Origin: Nitrosopumilus sp.
GTDB lineage: Archaea; Thermoproteota; Nitrososphaeria; Nitrososphaerales; Nitrosopumilaceae
Length of the DNA: 64,000 bases
Assembly (NCBI GenBank): GCA_963667665.2
Contig: OY763927.2
Location: 288,001-352,000 of the forward strand
Reading direction: 5' to 3'
A program made the translations under genes and the position numbers. How positions within the stretch are numbered: position 1 is the stretch's first letter; each line of letters begins with the position of its first letter. This document shows positions 45,476 to 56,400 of the stretch, in pieces. The notes under the pieces are model-generated. The model worked only from the letters and a program-made list of their open reading frames with translations. It did no database searches and had not been told where the DNA came from.

Positions 45476-45511
45476 GGATTTTGTAATTCTATGTGATTAA
45501 TTGGGCTCAAA
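45476..45511 (+). repeat. Island boundary motif, copy 1
   Basis: GGATTTTGTAATTCT-ATGTGATTAATTGGGCTCAAA. Confidence 0.7.
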
Positions 45512-45515
45512 TTCA

Positions 45516-46271
45516 TTAATCATTTTTTACTTCGATTTTATTTTTATTAAATTTGTTGTATCCATCTTTGTTGTATCCCTCTTTGTTGTAACCTATGTGA
45601 TCATATCCAAGTCTATCATACCCCTCTTTGTTATACCCAATACTATCATATCCATCTAAGTCATACCCAATACTATCATATCCATCTAAGTCATACCCAT
45701 TACTGTCATATCCAAGTCTATCATATCCGTCTTTGTTATACCCGTCTTTGTTGTATCCGTTTTTGTTATGCCCATCTAGGTCATACCCGTCTTTGTTGTA
45801 ACCCTTTTTGTTGTATCCATTACTATCATACCCATTTTTGTTGTAACCCTTTTTGTTGTATCCATCTTTGTTGTAACCCTTTTTGTTATACCCGTCTTTA
45901 TCAAAATTTATTTTTGTATCAATGTGAATTCCATCAAGATAAAAACCATGATTATCATACCCATTTTTGTCATACCCCTTTTTGTTGTATCCATTTTTGT
46001 TGTAACCCTTTTTGTCATACCCCTTTTTGTTGTATCCATCTAGGTCATACCCATTTTTGTTGTATCCATTTTTGTTATACTCCTCTTTGTTATACCCGTC
46101 TTTATCATACCCATCTTTGTTGTAACCCTTTTTGTTGTATCCATCTTTGTTGTACCCATCTTTGTTGTAACCCTTTTTGTTATACCCGTCTTTATCATAC
46201 CCATTACAATCATACCCATCTTTGTCGTATCCAAACTTGTCAAATTTTTTAAATTTATCAAATAATCCCAT
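45516..46271 (-). CDS. Pentapeptide GY[DN]xx repeat protein
   Basis: Dozens of GYNKK/GYDKD/GYDLD units encoded by 15-bp repeats; likely start MGLFDK at 46271. Confidence 0.8.
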   Translation of the reverse strand: MGLFDKFKKFDKFGYDKDGYDCNGYDKDGYNKKGYNKDGYNKDGYNKKGYNKDGYDKDGYNKEEYNKNGYNKNGYDLDGYNKKGYDKKGYNKNGYNKKGYDKNGYDNHGFYLDGIHIDTKINFDKDGYNKKGYNKDGYNKKGYNKNGYDSNGYNKKGYNKDGYDLDGHNKNGYNKDGYNKDGYDRLGYDSNGYDLDGYDSIGYDLDGYDSIGYNKEGYDRLGYDHIGYNKEGYNKDGYNKFNKNKIEVKND

Positions 46272-46327
46272 ATTATTTTCATAAATTGCTAGCAAATAAA
46301 ACCGATCATGTAATTTTGTATTATGCT

Positions 46328-46427
46328 CTAAAGCGTGTATGCCCAACCTTCTTGGTCGCAAAATTCTTTATAGTAAATTTCTCCTAAAGAACCTCTTGAG
46401 TTTGTTTGTGATTCTAGGTGTAACCAA
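46328..46427 (-). pseudogene. Truncated, frameshifted gene remnant, possibly a PD-(D/E)xK nuclease N-terminus
   Basis: MVTPRITNKLK / GSLGEIYYKEFCDQEGWAY read across a 1-nt shift. Confidence 0.4.
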
Positions 46428-46456: not shown

Positions 46457-46490
46457 GGATTTTGTAATCCTCATGTGATTAATTGAGCTT
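46457..46490 (+). repeat. Island boundary motif, copy 2
   Basis: GGATTTTGTAATCCTC-ATGTGATTAATTGAGCTT. Confidence 0.7.
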
Positions 46491-46551: not shown

Positions 46552-47223
46552 ATGAGTCTATGTAATGATCCTAAATGTCCTCTAAATAGACAGGGAGTTA
46601 CTCATGAAATTCACGAATTAATTGAAAATCGACCAGTGAAAAATCCATGCAATGATCCTCGATGTGCAATGAATAGAATGGGAATGAGTCATGAGATACA
46701 TGATGGAAAACAAGTTAATGATAGTGAACCTATACAAGAAAAAACATCAAAACAATATGTTGTAGATGATGAAGATACAGAATCAACTAATGAAACTTTA
46801 CAAGAATTAGGTAAACGGGTTTACAGAGATAATCCAAATAAAATATCTAGAGAAAAAATACTTGCAGAGCGAAGAAAAAGAGGAAGACAAAAAATAGAAC
46901 AAGAAGCTCAAGAAGTCAATAGAAGACAAAAGATTAAAGAAAAAACATCTACAAAATCTGAAACGGTTTCACAAACAAGAAACAAAAAAGAAATTCCATC
47001 AGTTAATCAAATTTTACATTGCAATGATCCATATTTGACATTTAACTTGACACAAGATACAACGTGTGATGAAATTAAATCAACATACAGAATACTAAGT
47101 AAAAATTACAATGCATCTCGTGGAAGTGCTAATAGATCACAAGATGAACAAGAACGACTCACCAAGACACAAAGTAAAATAAACATTGCATATGACATCT
47201 TAAGAAAAAAACATTGTGGTTGA
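46552..47223 (+). CDS. Atypical J-domain protein lacking HPD, with two N-terminal C2H2-like repeats
   Basis: DPY..F....EIKSTYR.LSKNY-NAS...KINIAYDIL; CNDPxC...HEIH twice. Confidence 0.75.
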   Translation: MSLCNDPKCPLNRQGVTHEIHELIENRPVKNPCNDPRCAMNRMGMSHEIHDGKQVNDSEPIQEKTSKQYVVDDEDTESTNETLQELGKRVYRDNPNKISREKILAERRKRGRQKIEQEAQEVNRRQKIKEKTSTKSETVSQTRNKKEIPSVNQILHCNDPYLTFNLTQDTTCDEIKSTYRILSKNYNASRGSANRSQDEQERLTKTQSKINIAYDILRKKHCG

Positions 47224-49285
47224 TATGGTAGTTTTAGGAATTGATTTAGGTACTAATAGTTCTGCAGCAGCTGCAATGATTGATGGTAAAGTACAACTCA
47301 TTTCATTTTCTGATAAAAACTCTACAGATGTAAAGCCATTTTATTCTGTTGTCTCTTTTTTTGAAGATGGCAGTTGCCTCATTGGAAAGCCAGCACTGGA
47401 GCAAGCATCATACAATCCAAAAGGAACTGTGTTTAATGTCAAAAGAATGATGGGAACCGGAGAACCCATTCATGTTTTAAAGAAAAGCTATCTTCCACAA
47501 TTTATCTCAGCATTACTAATTATGGAAATGAAGATTAAAGCAGAGAAACTTTTGAATGAAACTATCACAAAGGCAGTCATTACAGTTCCAGCATATTTTA
47601 ACGATAATCAGCGTCAAGCAACGAGAGATGCTGGAAAAATCGCAGGTTTGAACGTAATTCAGGTGTTAAATGAGCCTGTCGCTGCATCAATTGCCTATGG
47701 TCTAAACAGACTAGAAGAGCCCACAAAAATTCTAGTATTTGACATGGGGGCTGGAACTTTGGATGTATCAATTTTAGAAGTTGATAATAATTTCTTTGAG
47801 GTATTATGTACTACAGGAGATACAAATCTTGGTGGAATTAATGCCGATGAAATTATTTCAGAGATGATTTTAGAAGAAATTAAAAAAATAAAACCAAATG
47901 AAACAATTGATGAACTCTCAAAGTTACAGATAATGCAGTTAGCTGAATCAATTAAAATCAGATTATCTGAAAATACAGAACTTGATTTTGTTGAAGATAT
48001 TGCATTAACTGATTCGCATATTGATTTACCAATATCAATTAGTAGAGAAAAGTTTGATTCTATGATAGAATCAATTTTAGATAAATGCAAAGTATGCATA
48101 TCTGATGCGCTAAAAGGTGCAAATCTTACTTCAGATAAAATAGATAAAGTAGTGTTAGTTGGAGGATCAGTTAAAATTCCTGCCATTAAAAAAATGGTTT
48201 CAGAATTTATTCGAGAACCAGAATCAAACATTGATTCTACATTTACTGTTGCATCAGGTGCTGCAATTCAAGGTGCAGTGTTGTCTGATGATCGAAATTT
48301 GCCTGTGATTTTTCAGAATTTAGTACTATTAAACAAAACACCATTAGATTTAGGGGAGCATGCCATAAAAAAAAGACAGGAATTTATACAATTAATGATT
48401 CCAAAGAATACTACTTATCCAACTGAATTCACTGAAGTATTTTATGTAAATAAAATTATGCAAACTGAAGTCTCAATTAGTGTTTGGCAAGGAGATTTTG
48501 AAAAGAATCCAGATTTTCCAGGTAATGTAAACATTGGACAATTTTGGTTACGTGGTTTACGTGAAGGAATAGAAAAAGAGATTGAAGTTACATACAAAAT
48601 TGATGCAGATGGAATAATTTCAGTTACTGCATATGAGATAGAAGGAAATGCCCATGATGAATTAACCATAGATAAAATGGGAAATTCAGTAATTTCACCA
48701 CCTGAACTTGAATTTGCGCACGAAGAAATCGAGAAAATTGAGAAAAAGCACAAACGGGACATTATGAGTCCATATGAAACTCCAGTTGATGATTATGAAT
48801 TTGCATCACCAAAAGTATCTGAAGAATACACCAAGGATTATGGATGGGTTTGCAATTGTTTGGCAAAAGCAATAGAGATTATCAAAACACATCATAACCA
48901 TCCAGAATATCATCCGGATTTTTTCAAGACTGCAAGATTTGAGATATATCTACAATTAGACATGCAGTATGCTTATGCATATATTCAATTGACAGGTGGA
49001 CCTGTTTACCCAATTCACATTCATAATGCTCTAAAAGAGAATTCAGAGCAAAATAATAGAATTTTGGTAGTAACATTAGTTCATGAATTACTTCATGCAA
49101 TACATCCTGATTGGGGACATAATAAAATACGTCCAGCTGAAAGAAGGCTAGCAAACTTGGCAATGTACTTTGATGCATACAGAGAGATGGAAATTAAATT
49201 TCTCAGTGGAAAAATGTCTTTGTGTAATAATACTATGACGCGAAGAGACCAAAAAGTTAGAATTCAATGCAAGAGTGAAGACTAG
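47216..49285 (+). CDS. Divergent Hsp70 fused to a C-terminal zincin-like (HExxH) domain
   Basis: GIDLGT, TVPAYFNDNQRQAT, NEPVAA, DMGAGTLD, LVGG and IDADGI motifs; then TLVHELLHAIHPDWGH. Confidence 0.88.
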   Translation: MVDMVVLGIDLGTNSSAAAAMIDGKVQLISFSDKNSTDVKPFYSVVSFFEDGSCLIGKPALEQASYNPKGTVFNVKRMMGTGEPIHVLKKSYLPQFISALLIMEMKIKAEKLLNETITKAVITVPAYFNDNQRQATRDAGKIAGLNVIQVLNEPVAASIAYGLNRLEEPTKILVFDMGAGTLDVSILEVDNNFFEVLCTTGDTNLGGINADEIISEMILEEIKKIKPNETIDELSKLQIMQLAESIKIRLSENTELDFVEDIALTDSHIDLPISISREKFDSMIESILDKCKVCISDALKGANLTSDKIDKVVLVGGSVKIPAIKKMVSEFIREPESNIDSTFTVASGAAIQGAVLSDDRNLPVIFQNLVLLNKTPLDLGEHAIKKRQEFIQLMIPKNTTYPTEFTEVFYVNKIMQTEVSISVWQGDFEKNPDFPGNVNIGQFWLRGLREGIEKEIEVTYKIDADGIISVTAYEIEGNAHDELTIDKMGNSVISPPELEFAHEEIEKIEKKHKRDIMSPYETPVDDYEFASPKVSEEYTKDYGWVCNCLAKAIEIIKTHHNHPEYHPDFFKTARFEIYLQLDMQYAYAYIQLTGGPVYPIHIHNALKENSEQNNRILVVTLVHELLHAIHPDWGHNKIRPAERRLANLAMYFDAYREMEIKFLSGKMSLCNNTMTRRDQKVRIQCKSED

Positions 49286-49287
49286 AA

Positions 49288-49911
49288 TTGAGTGGAGAAT
49301 ATCTAATTGAAATTAGAATTAGAGGAGATATTAGAGATTTATGTAAAAAATTAATCTATGATATTTTTTATAAATTTCGTGTTTCTAATGTAGCAAGTAA
49401 AAGACCAGTTCCACATATTTCATTGTTTGGTCCATTTGATTGCAAATCAATTAAACCAGTAATTCATGAAATAAAAAAAACAGGAAAAAATTATACAAAA
49501 TTAGAATACAAAGTAAGTGGCTTTGATTATTTTGAATTAAAGAAAAAATTTCTATTCATTACTACATCTACAAAGAAAAATGTACTCTATCTCAAAATTG
49601 AAGCAAGCGAAGATCTTAAAGAATTCAGACATTCATTATCTAAAAAATTACTAAAAATTACAAAATCAGTAAATATTGATAATGATTCTAAAGAAGACTT
49701 CAAATTTCATGCAACTATTGCCATGAGGGATATTGATAGAAAATTTGACCGAATATGGGATTATCTCAAAAAATACAAAATTCACAAAAATGGAACATCA
49801 TATAGAATTACTTTGCTTAGAAAAGGGAGAATTGTGTGTGAATATGACCTGTATGAGCAGAGATTTTTGAAAAGAACTCAAGCATTAAGGCGTAAACCCA
49901 GAAGGAGATAA
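49288..49911 (+). CDS. 2H phosphoesterase (2'-5' RNA ligase-like)
   Basis: Two HxS/T motifs: PHISL and FHATI. Confidence 0.82.
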   Translation: MSGEYLIEIRIRGDIRDLCKKLIYDIFYKFRVSNVASKRPVPHISLFGPFDCKSIKPVIHEIKKTGKNYTKLEYKVSGFDYFELKKKFLFITTSTKKNVLYLKIEASEDLKEFRHSLSKKLLKITKSVNIDNDSKEDFKFHATIAMRDIDRKFDRIWDYLKKYKIHKNGTSYRITLLRKGRIVCEYDLYEQRFLKRTQALRRKPRRR

Positions 49912-49961
49912 TATTTGAAAAACAAAGGAAATCTTAAGTTCATACAAAATTCTAATTAATT

Positions 49962-50207
49962 GTGAGGCATCGTCGAAGACGAAATTATGGAAGTCGTAGA
50001 AGTTCTGGAAAAAGTTTGAAGATTTGGATTAAATTAATAATTGCAGGAATCATACTTTTCTTTGTAGGAGTTTTTTACATTACAGCAACAGGTGGTCCTA
50101 CAATTGCATCACCTGGCATGATAATTAGTCTCATTGGAGTTATTCTTGTAGTAGTAGGAGTATTATCTGGAATTGCGCGTGGCTTTAATCGAATGATGAG
50201 TGAATGA
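49962..50207 (+). CDS. Small two-TM membrane protein
   Basis: Basic N-terminus and two hydrophobic helices; ATGA overlap with the HNH gene. Confidence 0.7.
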   Translation: MRHRRRRNYGSRRSSGKSLKIWIKLIIAGIILFFVGVFYITATGGPTIASPGMIISLIGVILVVVGVLSGIARGFNRMMSE

Positions 50208-51131
50208 CTTCAGAATTTAATAGATTTTTCTCATCAAAAACTCTAGCTAGTACATACAAACCAACATTTGTAAAATGTCTTTTAGATTTAGGAGATTTTC
50301 AAAAAGATGAAGGCGAACAATGGGTAAAAAAACATGAAGATTATCTTACAGTTGATCTAAATTTCATAGCAGTAAGATTTCTTAGATATTATCATCCTTT
50401 AAAATTCAAGTTTAAATTAAAACAAGAGGCAACAGCAAAAAGAATTGTCATATATAGAATTTTAGAAGATTTTAAAGAACTTGTAGGAATAAAGACTGCT
50501 CCATCAAAGAAGACATTATGTTCAGAACATTTTTCTGAAATGCGACAAATAACAATCAAAGAGGGAATCAAACCACAAGTTCTCAAGAAATTATTAAACG
50601 ATTGTAATATCTATTCTATAAACAAAGGCTCCAACAGTATTGAGATTAAAACAGATGTTGTAAAGTTCATGAAAGAAAACAAAAAAGTTCTTGAATCTGC
50701 ATTAAATCACATGATTGCAAAATATTTAGAAAATTGTAATGCATCCCCAAATATCTCTACTGCATTAGAAGAAATTATTCCAAGAAAAAAACTTAGTGTA
50801 CCGATATTTGATACAATAATTGATTTGCAATCTTCTCGATGTTTTTATTGTAACCAGAAATTTGATAGAAAAGAGTTTGCACAAGAACATTTCATCCCTT
50901 GGAATTTCATCAGACAAACAGAACCTTACAACATCATTGCAGCGTGTACCCCCTTGTAATTCTAGTGAAAATGATCGATTGGCCAGTGAAAAATACCTTG
51001 AAAACATCATTAAACGAAACAAGACTCTGGAGAAACTCCCTATGGGGTATTCTGAAGAGTTCATGAGAAACATGTATGGTATGTGTAGAATAGAATATCA
51101 CGGAATTAGTGAGAAACTATGGGAACTGTAA
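50204..51131 (+). pseudogene. HNH endonuclease split by an extra C in a C5 run
   Basis: STYK N-terminal motif, CFYC, EHFIPW and NIIAAC-TP-CNSS restored by removing one C at 50949-50953. Confidence 0.8.
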
Positions 51132-52451: not shown

Positions 52452-52472
52452 ATGTGATTAATTGGGCTCAAA
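52452..52472 (+). repeat. Island boundary motif, copy 3
   Basis: ATGTGATTAATTGGGCTCAAA, identical to 45491-45511. Confidence 0.75.
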
Positions 52473-52532
52473 AACATGGATGTTAAAAGAAATCTTAAGT
52501 TCATATAAAATTTAGAATAAAGATGAGAAATA

Positions 52533-54743
52533 ATGTCTGAACAACTAGAAAAAATTTTTACATTTCCAGATGAATTTCCACCAATAACTACAGGATTATT
52601 ACTCGATGATGGGATAATTATTACAGGTCATTATAATGGATTTGTAGTAAAATGGAAAATTGGCTCAACGAAATATGATATACTTCATGATTGTGGCGAT
52701 AAAGTAGAAACTCTATCTAAATCTCCTACAAACCAAATTTTAGTTGGTTGTAATTCGGGGTTTCTATTCCATTTTGATCTTAATAATCCTACAGATAAAA
52801 TTATAATTCAAAAAGGAACAAATACAATATCATCTCGTATTTGGAGATCTGTATGGCCAACTGATGACACAATTCTAACAACTTCTACTTACGGTGGATT
52901 AAATTTATTCAATAAAACAGATTCAAAATGGAATAATGAATTATTATCAGGTCATTATCATAGCATTTTTGGAATTACTAATAAAAATGATAGATATGTT
53001 GTTTCAGGTGATTATAAAGGAAAAATAATAATTTGGGAAAAACATGATGATGGTTACAAATCTATTGATGAAGTAAATATTCAAGGCTCTGTAGAAGATA
53101 TTTCATGGATTAAAGAAGAGTCTTTTTCAGCAATTGATAATCTTGGCCACATCAATATTTTTGAATTAGATTCTACATCTGGATTATGGAAATCAATTGT
53201 TGGAGCTGATGTAGCTACTAGTAGAGGACATTGCATACATGTTATTAACAATGGAAAAACAGTTTTTGCTGGTACTGATACCGAGCTTATTCAATTTGAT
53301 CTTGATTCCCAACAAATTCAAACAAGTAATTTAGAAAAAATTAGAAAAATTTTTTCAGAAGGCAATCGAGTTTATGTACTTTCTGTAATTGGACTCTACT
53401 CATTTGAACCAAATAAAATACAAGTGCCTGTTGAACTTGTCAAATATCAATATGCTAAAGTTAGCCTCATTGGTCACACAGGAGTAGGTAAAAGTACATT
53501 ATGCAGTTCTATTGTTACTGGTTCAACGGATAATGTCAAATCTACTTTTGGAAAAAAGATTTGGACATGGAACTTACCCGATAACAATGATGGACCTGAA
53601 CAAAGAATAATTTTTCATGATCATGGTGGTCAAGAGACAGTTCTGGGTACATTTCTCCCGTTTCTCTCAGATTCAAATATAATTTTGGTATTTTTCAAAC
53701 AAACAGATAAAACTACATTTGATAAAGCCTATGAAATTATTAACGAATTAAAATCAATAGTTACCAAAAAATCTAAAATTTATCTTGTCCAGACACACAT
53801 CGATGAAGAGATTATCGATGTTGATGAAAGCCATATAGCTCAACTTATTGAATTAGGAGAAATTGTCAATTGCTTCAAAATATCACCAAAAACGGGTGAA
53901 GGAGTAGAAGAATTTTTGAAACAATTACAGAATGAAATTGACTGGTTGGAATCTAAAACGATGGCGCAATCTGAATATGTAGAAGGTCTCATGAAAACTA
54001 TCACCGATTTATCCATATTCGATGGTACAGTTGTAAGCTTTAATTCTGTAAAAAACTCTTTTCAAGAAAAAACATCTTTGAATATAACTACTGGTCATTT
54101 GAATTTTCTTTTAACTAACTTTAGTAATCAAGGATTTATTGAATATTATCCTGATGTTTTGAAATCAGTAATTTTCAATAATGATGAGTATAATAAACTA
54201 CGAAGTAATGTACCGATTTTGGTAGATCAGGCAAATGGAATTATTTCAATAAAAGAAATTGAATCTGTCTTCAAACCTTCAACGTACTTGCAGATCTTAG
54301 ATAATGTTTATTTGAGTTATTCTATTGCGATAAAAGATAACGATGTACGAATTTTTCCTGATAAACTTAAAACTGAAGGAAGTACTGTTAAGAAACCTTA
54401 TGAAGATTTTTTGAAAAAACCTAGTCATCAATTCGAGTATCTCTTTCCATTACAAAAAATAAAATTGTATAATCTAATTGGACCCTTAATTGAATTAAAA
54501 TTAAAATGCATTGATGCGTCTAAGTTTGATGGATTATTCGCCTGGGAAACAAATGCTTGTCTTTATTACTCAATTGGAGAAGTAGGTAATTCAATTACTG
54601 GAAGAAATTCTAAGATATCTTATTTTATAGGGGGAACTGATAAAAAAATTTGTGATAGACTAAACAATGAATTTTCATCTATATTGATGCGTCTCTTTGG
54701 TCATAACATTTCTCAAGACACACAAACTAGTACATTAAACTAA
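52533..54743 (+). CDS. WD40 beta-propeller + Roc GTPase + COR-like protein (ROCO family)
   Basis: WD-like repeats (GH...VSGDYKGKIIIW); G1 GHTGVGKS, G2 STFG, G3 DHGGQE, G4 THID, G5 SPK; COR-like QGFIEYY...VIF. Confidence 0.85.
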   Translation: MSEQLEKIFTFPDEFPPITTGLLLDDGIIITGHYNGFVVKWKIGSTKYDILHDCGDKVETLSKSPTNQILVGCNSGFLFHFDLNNPTDKIIIQKGTNTISSRIWRSVWPTDDTILTTSTYGGLNLFNKTDSKWNNELLSGHYHSIFGITNKNDRYVVSGDYKGKIIIWEKHDDGYKSIDEVNIQGSVEDISWIKEESFSAIDNLGHINIFELDSTSGLWKSIVGADVATSRGHCIHVINNGKTVFAGTDTELIQFDLDSQQIQTSNLEKIRKIFSEGNRVYVLSVIGLYSFEPNKIQVPVELVKYQYAKVSLIGHTGVGKSTLCSSIVTGSTDNVKSTFGKKIWTWNLPDNNDGPEQRIIFHDHGGQETVLGTFLPFLSDSNIILVFFKQTDKTTFDKAYEIINELKSIVTKKSKIYLVQTHIDEEIIDVDESHIAQLIELGEIVNCFKISPKTGEGVEEFLKQLQNEIDWLESKTMAQSEYVEGLMKTITDLSIFDGTVVSFNSVKNSFQEKTSLNITTGHLNFLLTNFSNQGFIEYYPDVLKSVIFNNDEYNKLRSNVPILVDQANGIISIKEIESVFKPSTYLQILDNVYLSYSIAIKDNDVRIFPDKLKTEGSTVKKPYEDFLKKPSHQFEYLFPLQKIKLYNLIGPLIELKLKCIDASKFDGLFAWETNACLYYSIGEVGNSITGRNSKISYFIGGTDKKICDRLNNEFSSILMRLFGHNISQDTQTSTLN

Positions 54744-54745
54744 AA

Positions 54746-55162
54746 ATGTTTGAATTTGATGTTGCACTTTCATTTGCAGGTGAGCAAAGAGTTTATGTTG
54801 AAAAAGTTGCATATTTTTTGCAAAACAAAGGACTCACTGTGTTTTATGATAAGTTTCATCAATCTCATCTGTGGGGTAAAGATTTATCGATATATCTTCA
54901 TGATGTTTTTTCTAACAAATCAAAATTTTGTATAATGTTTATTTCTAAAGAGTATATTGAAAAAGCTTGGCCTAGTCATGAAAGAGAAGCAGCGCTTCAA
55001 AAGCAAGTTGAAGTTGGAGGCGGTTATATTCTACCAGTGCGATTTGATGATACAGTGGTTCCTGGTCTTCCTGACAGTATCTCATATATTGATGCAAATA
55101 CCTACACCCCAGAAAATATTGCCAAAATGTTTTTAGAAAAATATGAGAATAAAAATACATAA
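54746..55162 (+). CDS. TIR domain protein
   Basis: FDVALSFAGE, VFYD, FISKEY, WPSHE (catalytic Glu position) and ILPV motifs. Confidence 0.92.
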   Translation: MFEFDVALSFAGEQRVYVEKVAYFLQNKGLTVFYDKFHQSHLWGKDLSIYLHDVFSNKSKFCIMFISKEYIEKAWPSHEREAALQKQVEVGGGYILPVRFDDTVVPGLPDSISYIDANTYTPENIAKMFLEKYENKNT

Positions 55163-55191
55163 TTTTCAATCATTATAATCAAATATCTTTA

Positions 55192-56400
55192 CTAACGAAT
55201 AATTTCCAAAATTTTCTCAGGTGGAATTTGCCCATAACTTTTTTTTAATTCATCAATGGTATGCCATTCTCCAACTTCTGCAATAATTCCATAGTTGTAG
55301 TTAGTTTTGGATAACCAGTAATGAGCACCAATATGCCTGAGTACGTGCGTAGAATGACTGAGAAAATAGTTAGTGTTTTTCCCCAAATGTTTGTAGATTT
55401 GAATTAATTTTTTTCTTATATCTATTTGAAATGCATATCTTGATTCATTTGATTCATAAATTTTATTGCAGCCTCTTGCACGAAGTAAATCAATACTTTG
55501 TTGTGTTTCTTTTTTTGTGATGTACTTTGTCCATTTTCCTCCTCTAATGTGTGATGTCTTTGATTCAATCGCAGACATAACATAGATTATTTTTTCACGG
55601 TTGTTGTATGTGGTATAGTCATTTGTCATTGTATATAGTGCACCAAATCTTGCACAAGATTCTATTCCAATCCAGAACCATCTGTAAATATCAGAATCAA
55701 TTCCCCATCTTTCTTTGATAAATGAATCAGCTTGCTCTAGTTCTGTAGTTGTTAGTCTAATGTCTGCATACAGTCCATGTGATAATACTTTTTGTGACAT
55801 TATTCCCCCAACTCCTTTTCTCCATGTAATGTTGTAAAATCCACAAAAGTCTCTTACTGCTTGTACTCTGGTATATACAACCCACTTTATTCCGTTAGGT
55901 CTGTTTCCTCTGGGATCTCTTGTATCTTTTTTTTGTGAACATAGTTGTGCAAAACTTCGCATAATTTTTTCAGTATTTCTTTGAGAGACTAACAAATCTG
56001 ATGGATGAATTGAACACGTATTGCATACTGATTCTAGTGAACGTAGACGAACTTTCCAGTTTCTTAGTGGTTCGACTCCCTTTCGAGTTATCAGATCATC
56101 TATCCATTCGGCAACTAGTATCTCTGATGTTATTGGATGATCTTTGTTGAATTGACGGAACTTTTTCTCTGATGGAATCTTTGGTAGAATGAATCTTCCT
56201 GTGTTAGTTTTCTCTAACTTCATTCTTTTCATATAGTTGTAGACTGTTTTTCTACACACTCCGAGCATCTTTGCTACCTCTGTCATTGGTATGGGATATG
56301 GTCTGGAACCTGTACCGTGAACCATATCTGATATCTCTGTAATTATCTGAGATTCAGATGCTCTCTTGCCGTGCAGGCGCATTCTGGGAACAAACTTCAC
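55192..56400 (-). CDS. Tyrosine recombinase/integrase with N-terminal HTH
   Basis: EVAKMLGVCRKTVYNY HTH; catalytic R (SCAR), HVLRH, W and Y (KSYG). Confidence 0.82.
   Translation of the reverse strand: MKFVPRMRLHGKRASESQIITEISDMVHGTGSRPYPIPMTEVAKMLGVCRKTVYNYMKRMKLEKTNTGRFILPKIPSEKKFRQFNKDHPITSEILVAEWIDDLITRKGVEPLRNWKVRLRSLESVCNTCSIHPSDLLVSQRNTEKIMRSFAQLCSQKKDTRDPRGNRPNGIKWVVYTRVQAVRDFCGFYNITWRKGVGGIMSQKVLSHGLYADIRLTTTELEQADSFIKERWGIDSDIYRWFWIGIESCARFGALYTMTNDYTTYNNREKIIYVMSAIESKTSHIRGGKWTKYITKKETQQSIDLLRARGCNKIYESNESRYAFQIDIRKKLIQIYKHLGKNTNYFLSHSTHVLRHIGAHYWLSKTNYNYGIIAEVGEWHTIDELKKSYGQIPPEKILEIIR

Follow-up and report, generated by a model that had tools for sequence, protein, structure and literature searches.

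A WD40-Roc-COR GTPase and a TIR protein form a probable split gene pair in an archaeon, at a break point that carries an A9 tract in fused relatives

Introduction

ROCO GTPases have been studied chiefly owing to LRRK2. Kaur et al. (2020; PMC7159879) note that a ROCO-type GTPase with a COR domain is a rare kind of switch module, seen in cyanobacteria and verrucomicrobia, and a passage of another article (PMC11378527) states that the functions of prokaryotic ROCO proteins are unknown. Defence systems are little known in ammonia-oxidising archaea and their sponge-associated relatives.

Here we analysed a gene pair in a 64,000-nucleotide stretch of DNA from Nitrosopumilus sp. (the whole of this stretch is called the window). 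An earlier note, made from the letters alone, had read the pair as a WD40-Roc-COR GTPase with a TIR effector one frame away, and had offered a split pair, a programmed frameshift or a sequencing indel as the cause of the separation. The features of the locus are collected in Table 1. In the literature searched, outside of which lay most subscription journals and supplements, neither this family nor the A9 tract treated below was found described.

Table 1. Features of the gene pair and its surroundings, in positions of the window.
Feature	Positions	Strand	Basis and remarks
Direct repeat D2 with TATA-like ATATAAAAT about 27 nt before the ATG	52485..52527	+	second copy at 49924-49966
WD40-Roc-COR gene	52533..54743	+	ORF list, 736 aa; stop TAA at 54741-54743
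Seven-bladed WD40-type beta-propeller, residues 1 to ~305	52533..53447	+	AF2, Foldseek
Roc GTPase domain, residues ~309-469	53457..53939	+	Pfam Roc and Ras, G motifs
COR-like C-terminal region, residues ~470-725, then short variable tail	53940..54743	+	fold
Junction TTA AAC TAA AA ATG	54731..54748	+	apparent A5 remnant at 54742-54746; T-A9-G at this place in fused relatives
Stand-alone TIR_2 effector gene	54746..55162	+	ORF list, 138 aa
Convergent HTH protein, 402 aa, probably tyrosine recombinase	55192..56400	-	HTH_17, atlas

Results

Domain architecture of the two proteins

The beta-propeller claimed for the N-terminus of the upstream protein was borne out by its predicted fold. The AF2 model (pLDDT 94.0, pTM 0.90) contained 28 strands forming seven four-stranded blades, and the best Foldseek matches were G-beta, the alpha-COPI WD40 domain, Lis1 and the prokaryotic WD40 protein 5yzv (TM 0.72-0.82). 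Pfam propeller and WD40 matches all fell under their cut-offs, and the propeller is therefore identified by fold; we presume that it acts as the sensor. The following domain was recognised by Pfam as Roc (PF08477, 46.7 bits, cut-off 27, residues 309-424) and, also above the cut-off, as Ras (43.0 bits). The complete set of G1-G5 motifs reported before could be read from the sequence, with G1 as GHTGVGKS (314-321), G3 as DHGGQ (363-367), G4 as THID (421-424) and G5 as SPKTG (451-455). Eight residues in G1, G2, G3 and G4 were invariant in 40 homologues (G319, K320, T338, D363, G366, Q367, T421 and D424).

Pfam COR gave no match at E<=0.01 in the upstream protein, and the COR-like region of the earlier reading was upheld by fold. 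The model of residues 300-736 (AF2 pLDDT 90.0, pTM 0.83) had LRRK1 (8e05), M. barkeri Roco2 RocCORdC (4wnr), LRRK2 and C. tepidum RocCOR (3dpu and 6hlu) as top Foldseek matches, and the RocCOR alignments covered 329-502 columns with E values of 1e-17 to 1e-15, TMq of 0.52-0.67 and a probability of 1.00. Judged by the predicted fold, by which alone COR is recognised, the protein is a true Roc-COR tandem with COR directly C-terminal to Roc.

The downstream protein matched Pfam TIR_2 (PF13676, 64.4 bits, cut-off 28) over its residues 6-125. The WxxxE motif that had been claimed is present as WPSHE at residues 75-79, with the putative catalytic Glu79 encoded at 54980-54982; W75, E79 and R80 were invariant in 43 of 43 TIR sequences, split forms included, and all 12 invariant TIR residues are kept in the window. 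The protein aligned with the NAD+ hydrolase AbTIR (8g83) and with TcpB, and WPSHE fell on WTNYE of AbTIR, the Glu of which we take to be catalytic. Among defence models, PADLOC PDC-S66 (59.3 bits) and RT-TIR_XII (24.8 bits) and NCBIfam Retron_TIR_antiphage (42.5 bits) matched the TIR at domain level only, with scores far under the whole-protein cut-offs. A complex prediction for the 736-aa protein and the TIR protein gave scores of 0.00 and 0.10 against a mark of 0.32, which permits no verdict either way.

Split and fused forms in the family

The upstream ORF ends with ACA TTA AAC TAA, followed by AA and the TIR ATG at 54746. The offset between the two starts (54746-52533 = 2213 = 3x737+2) places the TIR ORF in the -1 frame, which has a TAG at 54728-54730 and is open from 54731, five codons ahead of the TIR ATG. 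Base for base, this agreed with the ORFs, the 2-nt gap and the frame relation given earlier. Reading the -1 frame after TTA (AAA CTA AAA ATG TTT GAA TTT GAT) also reproduced the product ...TLKLKMFEFD that the earlier note had derived from a -1 slip, and by the same reading one A added in TTAAAC would fuse both frames.

The TIR was fused in one ORF in 67 of 119 family members. The pairing of Roc-COR with TIR is therefore not due to chance, and the statement that ROCO-TIR fusions occur in prokaryotes holds for this family. Whether homologues are fused or split, a check proposed by the earlier note, thus has a double answer: both forms exist, and the window belongs to the split group. In a tree of 101 family rows, it was placed in an all-split clade of six rows (support 100), which is nested in a larger group (support 99) with 14 split rows in all and one fused row, P0009. 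The split state is common to these 14 sequences, among which identity falls to about 47-57%. For P0002-P0006, the closest relatives at 62-82% identity, the joints are known from protein ends and starts only, and scans of genomes, metagenomes and viruses gave nothing closer than 56-57% identity.

All 37 of the closest stand-alone TIR clusters (P0120-P0156; 55-100% identity, 137-228 aa, 35 of them 137-143 aa) start with Met 2-9 residues ahead of FDVALSFAGEQR, a count that is biased because gene callers require a start codon. For 14 of these clusters, co-location with a Roc protein of about 730 aa is suggested solely by longest contigs of equal size.

At DNA level, relatives join the two genes in several ways: L004 and L043 have an ATGA overlap, L015 and L016 an 11-nt spacer with an own ATG, and L039 an ATG that overlaps; in L020 no ATG, GTG or TTG precedes the TIR motif, and the upstream ORF ends with GCA AAA TAA. 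With these overlaps and spacers, and with the group of 14 split rows, the split pair is the option of the earlier note that is upheld. All 12 split loci were out of frame and none was interrupted by an in-frame stop. Five further split loci share the -1 frame of the TIR with the window, L015 and L016; the spacers of the window (2 nt) and of L015 and L016 (11 nt) differ by 9. A -1 frame shared by these three has a chance of one in three and would also be expected from a conserved frameshift. The C-terminal domain itself is swapped within the family, with AlbA_2 in P0115, P0117, P0118, L013 and L042 and DUF4263 in P0100.

An invariant A9 tract in fused relatives

In the fused ROCO-TIR genes, a run of exactly nine A was found in the COR-TIR linker, at about residue 740 of 875. 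It was present in 30 of 30 fused loci (28 distinct), which come from several archaeal phyla. The base before the run was T in 27 of the 28 distinct loci, while other flanking positions reached a majority of just 32-57%. The same loci contain 21 further KKK tripeptides, none of which is coded as A9, and other A/T runs of at least nine occurred only three times in 238,618 bp. In L025 and L040 the run lies in other codon phases. Several of the relatives counted as split turned out to be A8 or A10 variants of the tract, and these tips are scattered among fused relatives in the tree. The earlier note had missed this tract at the break point.

One additional A would lead to a stop at most 9 codons past the run in all 28 distinct loci, and one A fewer to a stop at most 8 codons past it in 27 of 28. 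The background median to a stop in the same genes is, however, 8 codons, and the Val-Asp/Glu codons that follow account for many of the stops, so that these stops give no independent support. An A/T run of at least nine with stops nearby, the sequence criterion of the dnaX type, characterises the fused relatives; the window has A5.

Transcription and replication are known to slip readily on runs of this length. From the comparison of sequences, the locus appears to carry a hard-wired fission at a site that was slippage-prone in the ancestor. A farther-reading proposal is that T-A9-G constitutes a built-in slippage switch of the archaeal WD40-Roc-COR-TIR family, which the window lineage turned into two translationally coupled genes; we regard this as possible, with the odds somewhat against it. 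Slippage of this kind might occur in transcription, like that of Thermus dnaX, or in replication, like that behind phase variation. Its outcome might be a TIR-bearing receptor together with a TIR-less Roc-COR isoform, or an effector toggled on and off.

Recoding at the junction

According to the first of the rival explanations, ribosomes would shift to the -1 frame at TTA AAC TAA, by a programmed frameshift or a shifty stop, and make some full-length WD40-Roc-COR-TIR protein beside the separate products. It can draw on the -1 frame that is open before the TIR ATG, on the stop that comes directly after the candidate site, on the same frame relation in the other split loci named above and on L020, which lacks a start codon. 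A slip from AAC to AAA in the A site is a known half of a site of the type U_UUA_AAC. However, A_TTA_AAC is no X_XXY_YYZ slippery heptamer, because TTA in the P site cannot re-pair in the -1 frame (ATT). The 117 nt downstream folded no better than shuffled sequences (z +0.96; 171 of 200 shuffles folded at least as well), and no Rfam family matched. The joint sequence is moreover not conserved in L004, L015, L016 and L043, each of which has its own ATG, and the window TIR likewise has an ATG, with the Met kept at the TIR start within the clade. The programmed frameshift entertained by the earlier note is accordingly improbable.

Genomic context and distribution

Judged from its sequence, the D2 repeat region probably holds the promoter from which a leaderless Roc mRNA starts, and the repeat probably also forms the border of a cassette. 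The contigs from other strains stop at 52474/52486. On the other side, the 402-aa neighbour scored 26.3 bits with Pfam HTH_17, just under the cut-off of 27; it had no NCBIfam or PDB match and one weak, unnamed match in PHROGs (phrog_4494, E 0.00045), and was thus not identified as an integrase by Pfam, NCBIfam, PHROGs or PDB sequence searches. In a language-model atlas, which we treat as a lead only, its nearest clusters were tyrosine recombinases/integrases (score 0.95). It is probably a tyrosine recombinase, forming a mobile-element flank of the cassette. The GC content of the cassette (about 0.30, compared to 0.33 for the window) differs too little to be used, and the window holds no tRNA gene as an integration target.

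The Roc-COR locus is single copy. No match was obtained in 98 genomes of the same genus, and 3 of 400 genomes of the same family had weak matches, none of them a close homologue; in a phylum sample, 0 of 400 genomes had a match at E<=1e-20. Approximately 13 of 26 homologue loci, for which no control set was scored, had a Pfam family of defence or mobile elements within 4-6 kb (R-M, Cas1, ThsB_TIR, CAP12 TIR, TOTE AEP, DndB, integrase, transposase), and the remaining ones had housekeeping or uncharacterised neighbours. The context of the locus is apparently variable or mobile.

These surroundings bear on a second rival, in which the pair serves signalling or housekeeping through its GTPase, and the TIR is not an immune NADase but an adaptor for protein interactions. 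The statement on prokaryotic ROCO functions in PMC11378527 leaves room for it, as do the housekeeping neighbourhoods at many homologues. No whole-system model of PADLOC fits the pair, and the Roc protein reached only an unconvincing 17.9 bits with mad8. Against such a role stand the invariance of the catalytic-type Glu and its alignment with the Glu of a known NAD+ hydrolase, the sporadic occurrence of the gene across genomes, the swapping of the C-terminal effector domain among family members, and a cassette that adjoins a probable recombinase and has strain-variable borders. We therefore consider this rival very unlikely.

The junction in other strains

The junction at 54730-54750 was crossed with 0 gaps by contigs from four runs, each of a different study; one run may be the source of the window. 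These contigs (X1, X5, X6 and X9, with word depths of 824, 7, 41 and 4733) differed from the window by single-base changes only, which varied between runs; X6 and X9 therefore represent other strains. In the strains of all four studies both reading frames were kept.

This is difficult to reconcile with a recent inactivating mutation that left a decaying pseudogene pair without function. An HNH-like gene in the neighbourhood is itself frameshifted at a C5 run, and the scattered A8 and A10 tips could be seen as similar accidents. Here, however, both ORFs are intact, the split is shared by the 14 sequences described above, and no invariant TIR residue has been lost, so that decay is just as unlikely as an adaptor role. 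A sequencing or assembly error, with one more A in the true genome and a single fused gene as in the fused relatives, is refuted for practical purposes by the gap-free contigs, in which rare variants can nevertheless hide, and by an A run of just 3-5 at the junction, unlike a typical error site.

Discussion

The architecture and the split pair of the earlier interpretation have stood, and its indel and programmed frameshift have not. With a probability of about 0.78, the locus is a genuine two-gene operon that arose when a single ancestral gene for WD40-Roc-COR-TIR split in two. In the course of this fission, the window lineage would have exchanged the T-A9-G tract, now A5, for a fixed stop and start. 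The first gene would provide sensor and switch, with the propeller, the Roc GTPase and the COR region for dimerisation, and the second a free TIR with a catalytic-type Glu. Translational coupling of both genes can be inferred from PMC10666635: the gap between stop and start suits termination-reinitiation, by which the TIR would be started two bases past the stop of gene 1 on a probably common transcript.

By analogy with other sensor-NTPase-TIR proteins, a ligand derived from an invader would bind the propeller and thereby change the nucleotide and dimer state of Roc-COR. The two proteins would bind one another, and the TIR domains thus brought together would hydrolyse NAD+, in a defence of the abortive-infection type. 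From such systems it is fair to infer an NLR-like logic, in which a repeat sensor acts through a nucleotide switch on a TIR effector, and an immune function of the module would be in line with it.

What is new here is the invariance of A9 in the fused loci. The module itself is a rare two-gene, immune-like pair in an archaeon of the ammonia-oxidising type. The widespread archaeal family that couples Roc-COR to a TIR offers a testable role for ROCO proteins as GTPase-switched, NLR-like immune sensors, and its proteins, which are small and fold well, lend themselves to work on the control of an output domain by Roc-COR. Owing to the natural split, sensor and effector can be expressed separately and their association probed. 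Should the A9 tract have a function, it would be a rare conserved case of slippage-based recoding or phase variation in archaea and would show how the dose of an immune effector is limited. The slippage switch, if true, would provide a conserved recoding or contingency signal in an immune receptor of several archaeal phyla, and the locus in the window would illustrate how a gene can split at a slippery site.

Thermus thermophilus dnaX, with transcriptional slippage on an A9 run, is the closest parallel to the tract: the fused ROCO-TIR relatives also carry A9. In contrast to dnaX, slippage in the ROCO-TIR genes is a proposal from sequence, and the window has lost the tract.

The upstream protein resembles prokaryotic ROCO proteins (C. 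tepidum Roco LRR-Roc-COR, 3dpu/6hlu; M. barkeri Roco2, 4wnr) and LRRK1/LRRK2 in the COR that directly follows Roc, and it shares with ROCO/LRRK a G4 of the form THxD and a repeat domain N-terminal to Roc. Unlike in these proteins, the repeat domain is a WD40 propeller and not LRR; unlike LRRK, the protein has no kinase, and its output would be a TIR from a separate gene. Compared to the ROCO modules of PMC7159879, the present family is archaeal and has the order WD40-Roc-COR-TIR.

The TIR protein belongs to the TIR_2 fold family of bacterial and archaeal TIR NADases and effectors (AbTIR, 8g83/7uwg; TcpB/BtpA, 4lzp; PdTIR, 3h16), and the comparison set also included Thoeris ThsB, the PADLOC candidate PDC-S66 and retron RT-TIR. 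In contrast to Thoeris, no ThsA-like signal receiver was seen near the window pair. As a whole, the module shares its logic with the STAND/NLR-like sensors (Avs, bNACHT and NTPase conflict systems), with a repeat sensor, a P-loop switch, a TIR or nuclease effector and effector swapping. It departs from them in its switch, which is a Ras-like Roc GTPase; NB-ARC reached 19.1 bits, under its cut-off.

Two adjacent genes and their joint

We read the locus as a sensor-effector pair made of two proteins under the control of a GTPase switch, with a single-chain receptor as its ancestor; the probability of this reading is roughly 0.78. The propeller would serve as sensor and the Roc-COR part as switch, and the TIR protein would cleave NAD+. 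Two bases (AA) separate the Roc stop from the TIR ATG. With respect to the Roc ORF, the TIR ORF occupies the -1 frame, in which a TAG at 54728-54730 limits the open stretch to 54731 onwards. The earlier note had offered a split pair, a programmed frameshift or a sequencing indel for this joint; its coordinates and readings there were all correct against the ORF table and the sequence.

An indel is no longer tenable, as contigs from four runs of four different studies span 54730-54750 with 0 gaps, even if one run is possibly the source of the assembly and rare variants can stay hidden in contigs. The contigs differed from the window by single-base changes only (54585, 54950, 54967, 55061), which varied between runs, and at least some of them therefore represent other strains. 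At 54967 the window has T and all four runs have C, a synonymous change in the third base of the Ala74 codon of the TIR gene, beside the Trp75 codon.

For FRAMESHIFTING at the window's joint, a programmed frameshift is not supported. A hypothetical -1 shift after TTA would read ...TLKLKMFEFD; A_TTA_AAC is without the first triplet of a slippery heptamer, folding of the 117 nt past the stop has no advantage over shuffled sequence (z +0.96), no Rfam family matched 54400-55200 at E<=1, and the joint sequence is not conserved among relatives with DNA. A 2-nt stop-start gap is, according to one study, within the range of working termination-reinitiation coupling in an archaeon and a bacterium, and such tight gene pairs are enriched there for subunits of complexes (PMC10666635). 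By eye, a TATA-like ATATAAAAT was seen about 27 nt ahead of the Roc ATG and no comparable element ahead of the TIR ATG in this AT-rich DNA. For the split pair we infer translational coupling, association of the Roc-COR and TIR proteins, and TIR activity.

Features of the window and joints read in the DNA of split relatives
Feature	Position	Kind	Detail
Roc ORF	52533-54743 (+)	WD40-Roc-COR	736 aa; last codons ACA TTA AAC TAA
TIR ORF	54746-55162 (+)	TIR	138 aa; opens with ATG
Direct repeat, first kind	45491-45516, 46473-46489, 52452-52477
Direct repeat, second kind	49924-49966, 52485-52527
L004 (Nitrososphaera)		real two-gene joint	ATGA overlap
L043		real two-gene joint	ATGA overlap
L015, L016		real two-gene joint	TAA, 11 nt, ATG; CAAAA ahead of ATG as in the window
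L039		real two-gene joint	overlapping ATG
L011		two-gene joint	TTG start possible
L006		off-by-one homopolymer, without start codon	A8; A9 would fuse the frames
L032, L052		off-by-one homopolymer, without start codon	A10; A9 would fuse the frames
L044, L054		off-by-one homopolymer, without start codon	A7 run, one A short

Domains of the two proteins

In the 736-aa protein, Pfam detected the Roc domain at residues 309-424 (46.7 bits, cut-off 27; a Ras match overlaps). Propeller families scored under their Pfam cut-offs and no COR model matched at E<=0.01, and the protein was therefore folded in two parts (1-305 and 300-736) from alignments of 53 family members. The model of residues 1-305 (pLDDT 94.0, pTM 0.90) has 28 strands forming seven four-stranded blades; its best PDB matches were G-beta subunits, alpha-COPI, Lis1 and a prokaryotic WD40 domain (TM 0.72-0.82). 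The 300-736 model (pLDDT 90.0, pTM 0.83) best matched LRRK1, the M. barkeri Roco2 RocCORdC fragment, LRRK2 and the C. tepidum RocCOR tandem over 329-502 columns, while plain Rab GTPases cover just about 170. As the match to RocCOR structures runs well past the Rab span, the region after Roc is by its modelled fold a COR domain, and the product is a true ROCO protein, Roc followed by COR. Key residues of the G motifs (GHTGVGKS 314-321, DHGGQ 363-367, THID 421-424, SPKTG 451-455) were invariant in 40 homologues. The proposed WD40-Roc-COR architecture was thus borne out, Roc by Pfam and G motifs, propeller and COR by fold.

The TIR ORF carries a TIR_2 domain at residues 6-125 (Pfam, 64.4 bits, cut-off 28) alignable to the AbTIR NAD+ hydrolase, TcpB and PdTIR. 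Its WPSHE (residues 75-79) aligns onto WTNYE of AbTIR, whose Glu we take to be catalytic. W75, E79 and R80 were invariant in 43 TIR homologues, so that the WxxxE Glu is indeed kept.

Fused and split relatives

The 736-aa query found 119 relatives. As the earlier note had said of prokaryotes, ROCO-TIR fusions do occur: 67 of the 119 have the TIR within the same ORF (full-length ones about 866-915 aa), with the linker pattern ...LYGP-x(7-10)-KKK-x(6-9)-FDVALSFAGEQR, and about 40 end at 729-763 aa, that is, at the linker. Archaea (Nitrososphaera, Bathyarchaeia, Hadarchaeota, Thermoplasmatales, Asgard lineages) account for nearly all named sources and genome records; one record carries the label Thermodesulfobacteriota. 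A fused homologue (loci L026 and L059) lies on a 9.5-kb contig that is viral according to IMG/VR. Some family members have AlbA_2 (PF04326) or DUF4263 (PF14082) in place of the TIR on the same WD40-Roc-COR body (proteins P0100, P0115, P0117, P0118; loci L013:1224-1724, L042:5624-6142), a C-terminal replacement typical of conflict systems; the two AlbA_2 loci with DNA had no A run >=7 at the joint.

A FastTree tree was built from 101 near-full-length rows, of which 64 are fused and 37 split; it omits 18 of the 119 relatives (<690 aa, other C-terminus or broken TIR). The split state has to change no fewer than 17 times on this tree, and well-supported branches compel 13 of those changes. The window falls inside a six-row all-split clade (support 100), itself nested in a larger group (support 99) whose members are 14 split rows and one fused row, P0009. 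The split in the window's lineage is old and stable; many other split rows are single tips next to near-identical fused sequences.

Scans of genome and metagenome contigs yielded 52 loci: 30 fused, 12 split, 2 with another C-terminal domain and 8 cut by the contig end ahead of the joint. All 12 split loci were out of frame (8 at -1, 4 at +1), and an in-frame stop at the joint occurred in none of them. L015 and L016 are 56-57% identical to the window, and L032 matches the fused protein P0073 around its joint. One locus, L020 (6119-6232), fits neither kind of joint, having neither a start of its own (no ATG, GTG or TTG ahead of YDVALSY in the TIR frame) nor an A9 off-by-one; its Roc frame ends GCA AAA TAA, possibly a shifty stop.

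The TIR ORF matched 188 short proteins. Among the best 120 of these, the closest 37 clusters (P0120-P0156; 55-100% identity) were 137-228 aa long, 35 of them 137-143 aa, and in all 37 a Met 2-9 residues ahead of FDVALSFAGEQR was the start; the 14 nearest begin M-x-x-FDVALS, exactly as in the window. Gene callers need a start codon, which makes this Met evidence partly circular, but no such circularity affects the unchanging place of the Met across 67-100% identity. For 14 of the 37 clusters the longest contig was the same size as that of a ~730-aa Roc protein, which suggests that the two are neighbours.

An invariant A9 tract in fused genes

Exactly nine A's occurred in the linker of 30/30 fused loci (28 distinct). 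When loci were anchored on the run, its conservation was 100%, T preceded it in 27/28 and G followed in 78%, and at the other 34 flanking positions the majority base reached merely 32-75%. L025 and L040 keep the run in a different codon phase (L-K-K-N, Q-K-K-T), and the constraint therefore lies on the nucleotides and not on Lys-Lys-Lys. Long open frames of the 28 loci (238,618 bp) held 47 KKK tripeptides, of which 26 were coded AAAAAAAAA, every one a linker KKK, against 0 of the 21 others; lysine codons in gene bodies were 953 AAA and 593 AAG. Only three other A/T runs >=9 were present in this DNA, one being a second A9 run in a propeller-coding part (L009:6357). No probability is attached to the A9 counts because the loci are related, at about 35-60% protein identity and across several phyla.

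Two papers report that selection against A/T runs becomes evident at length nine in many bacterial genomes, and that in Thermus thermophilus dnaX transcriptional slippage on an A9 run gives a shorter product, with nearby stops in the other frames (PMC1088944, PMC5009743). The fused ROCO-TIR genes resemble dnaX in their nine-A run. In a transcript or genome with one A more, a stop follows <=9 codons past the run in 28/28 loci (14 read KKKS-stop), and with one A fewer <=8 codons past it in 27/28; the background median in the same genes is just 8 codons, so these stops are compatible with slippage and no proof of it. At the equivalent place the window has A5 only (CTAAAAATG). Its ATG stands directly after this remnant, as an ATG follows the run in L043 (A9 + TGA), L015 and L016.

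Genome context

The genome (1.89 Mb, 2 contigs) has one copy of the pair. Among 98 other species of the genus the Roc query matched nothing; 400 genomes of the family gave three weak matches (best 28% identity), and a sample of 400 genomes from the phylum gave none at E<=1e-20. On its two sides the pair has an RNase HII-like gene (71.2 bits) and a convergent HTH protein of 402 aa, whose nearest atlas clusters are tyrosine recombinases (score 0.95; no more than a lead). Contigs of other strains from the same samples leave the window at 52474/52486 and 55199-55294, and the pair thus acts like a cassette that can be swapped. Immediately ahead of successive gene groups, the Roc gene among them, stand short direct repeats of two kinds; repeats and break points may represent common promoters or the borders at which such cassettes recombine.

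Upstream, a co-directional group (46552-49911) comprises a weakly DnaJ-like ORF, a 689-aa Hsp70-like protein (406.7 bits, yet under the DnaK cut-offs of NCBIfam) and a 2H phosphoesterase, possibly another conflict-type module. An HNH/PtuB-like ORF (50204-51131 region) has a stop within its HNH motif right past a C5 run (ACCCCCTTGTAA, ~50949-50959), and the rest of the motif (..PPCNSSEND..) lies in another frame (ORF 50820-51131); the gene is either frameshifted or in error at the homopolymer. A 15-nt-period array of 22 in-register copies (45510-46286) lies inside ORF 45516-46361 (-), which had no Pfam match.

Within 4-6 kb of the homologue, about 13 of 26 loci had restriction-modification genes, Cas1, ThsB-type or CAP12-type TIRs, a TOTE primase, DndB, integrases or transposases, an uncontrolled count from 150 of 179 called flanking ORFs at 26 of 31 loci; housekeeping or unknown genes surrounded the others.

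Comparison with known systems

In our literature search the archaeal WD40-Roc-COR-TIR family was nowhere described, nor was its recurrent fission or the invariant A9 tract, the part most worth following up. Already known are ROCO proteins, TIR NADases and immune proteins of the sensor-NTPase-TIR type. ROCO-type switches are noted as rare in bacterial conflict systems (PMC7159879), and for eukaryotes the literature mentions combinations of ROCO with TIR (PMC11378527, PMC4104024).
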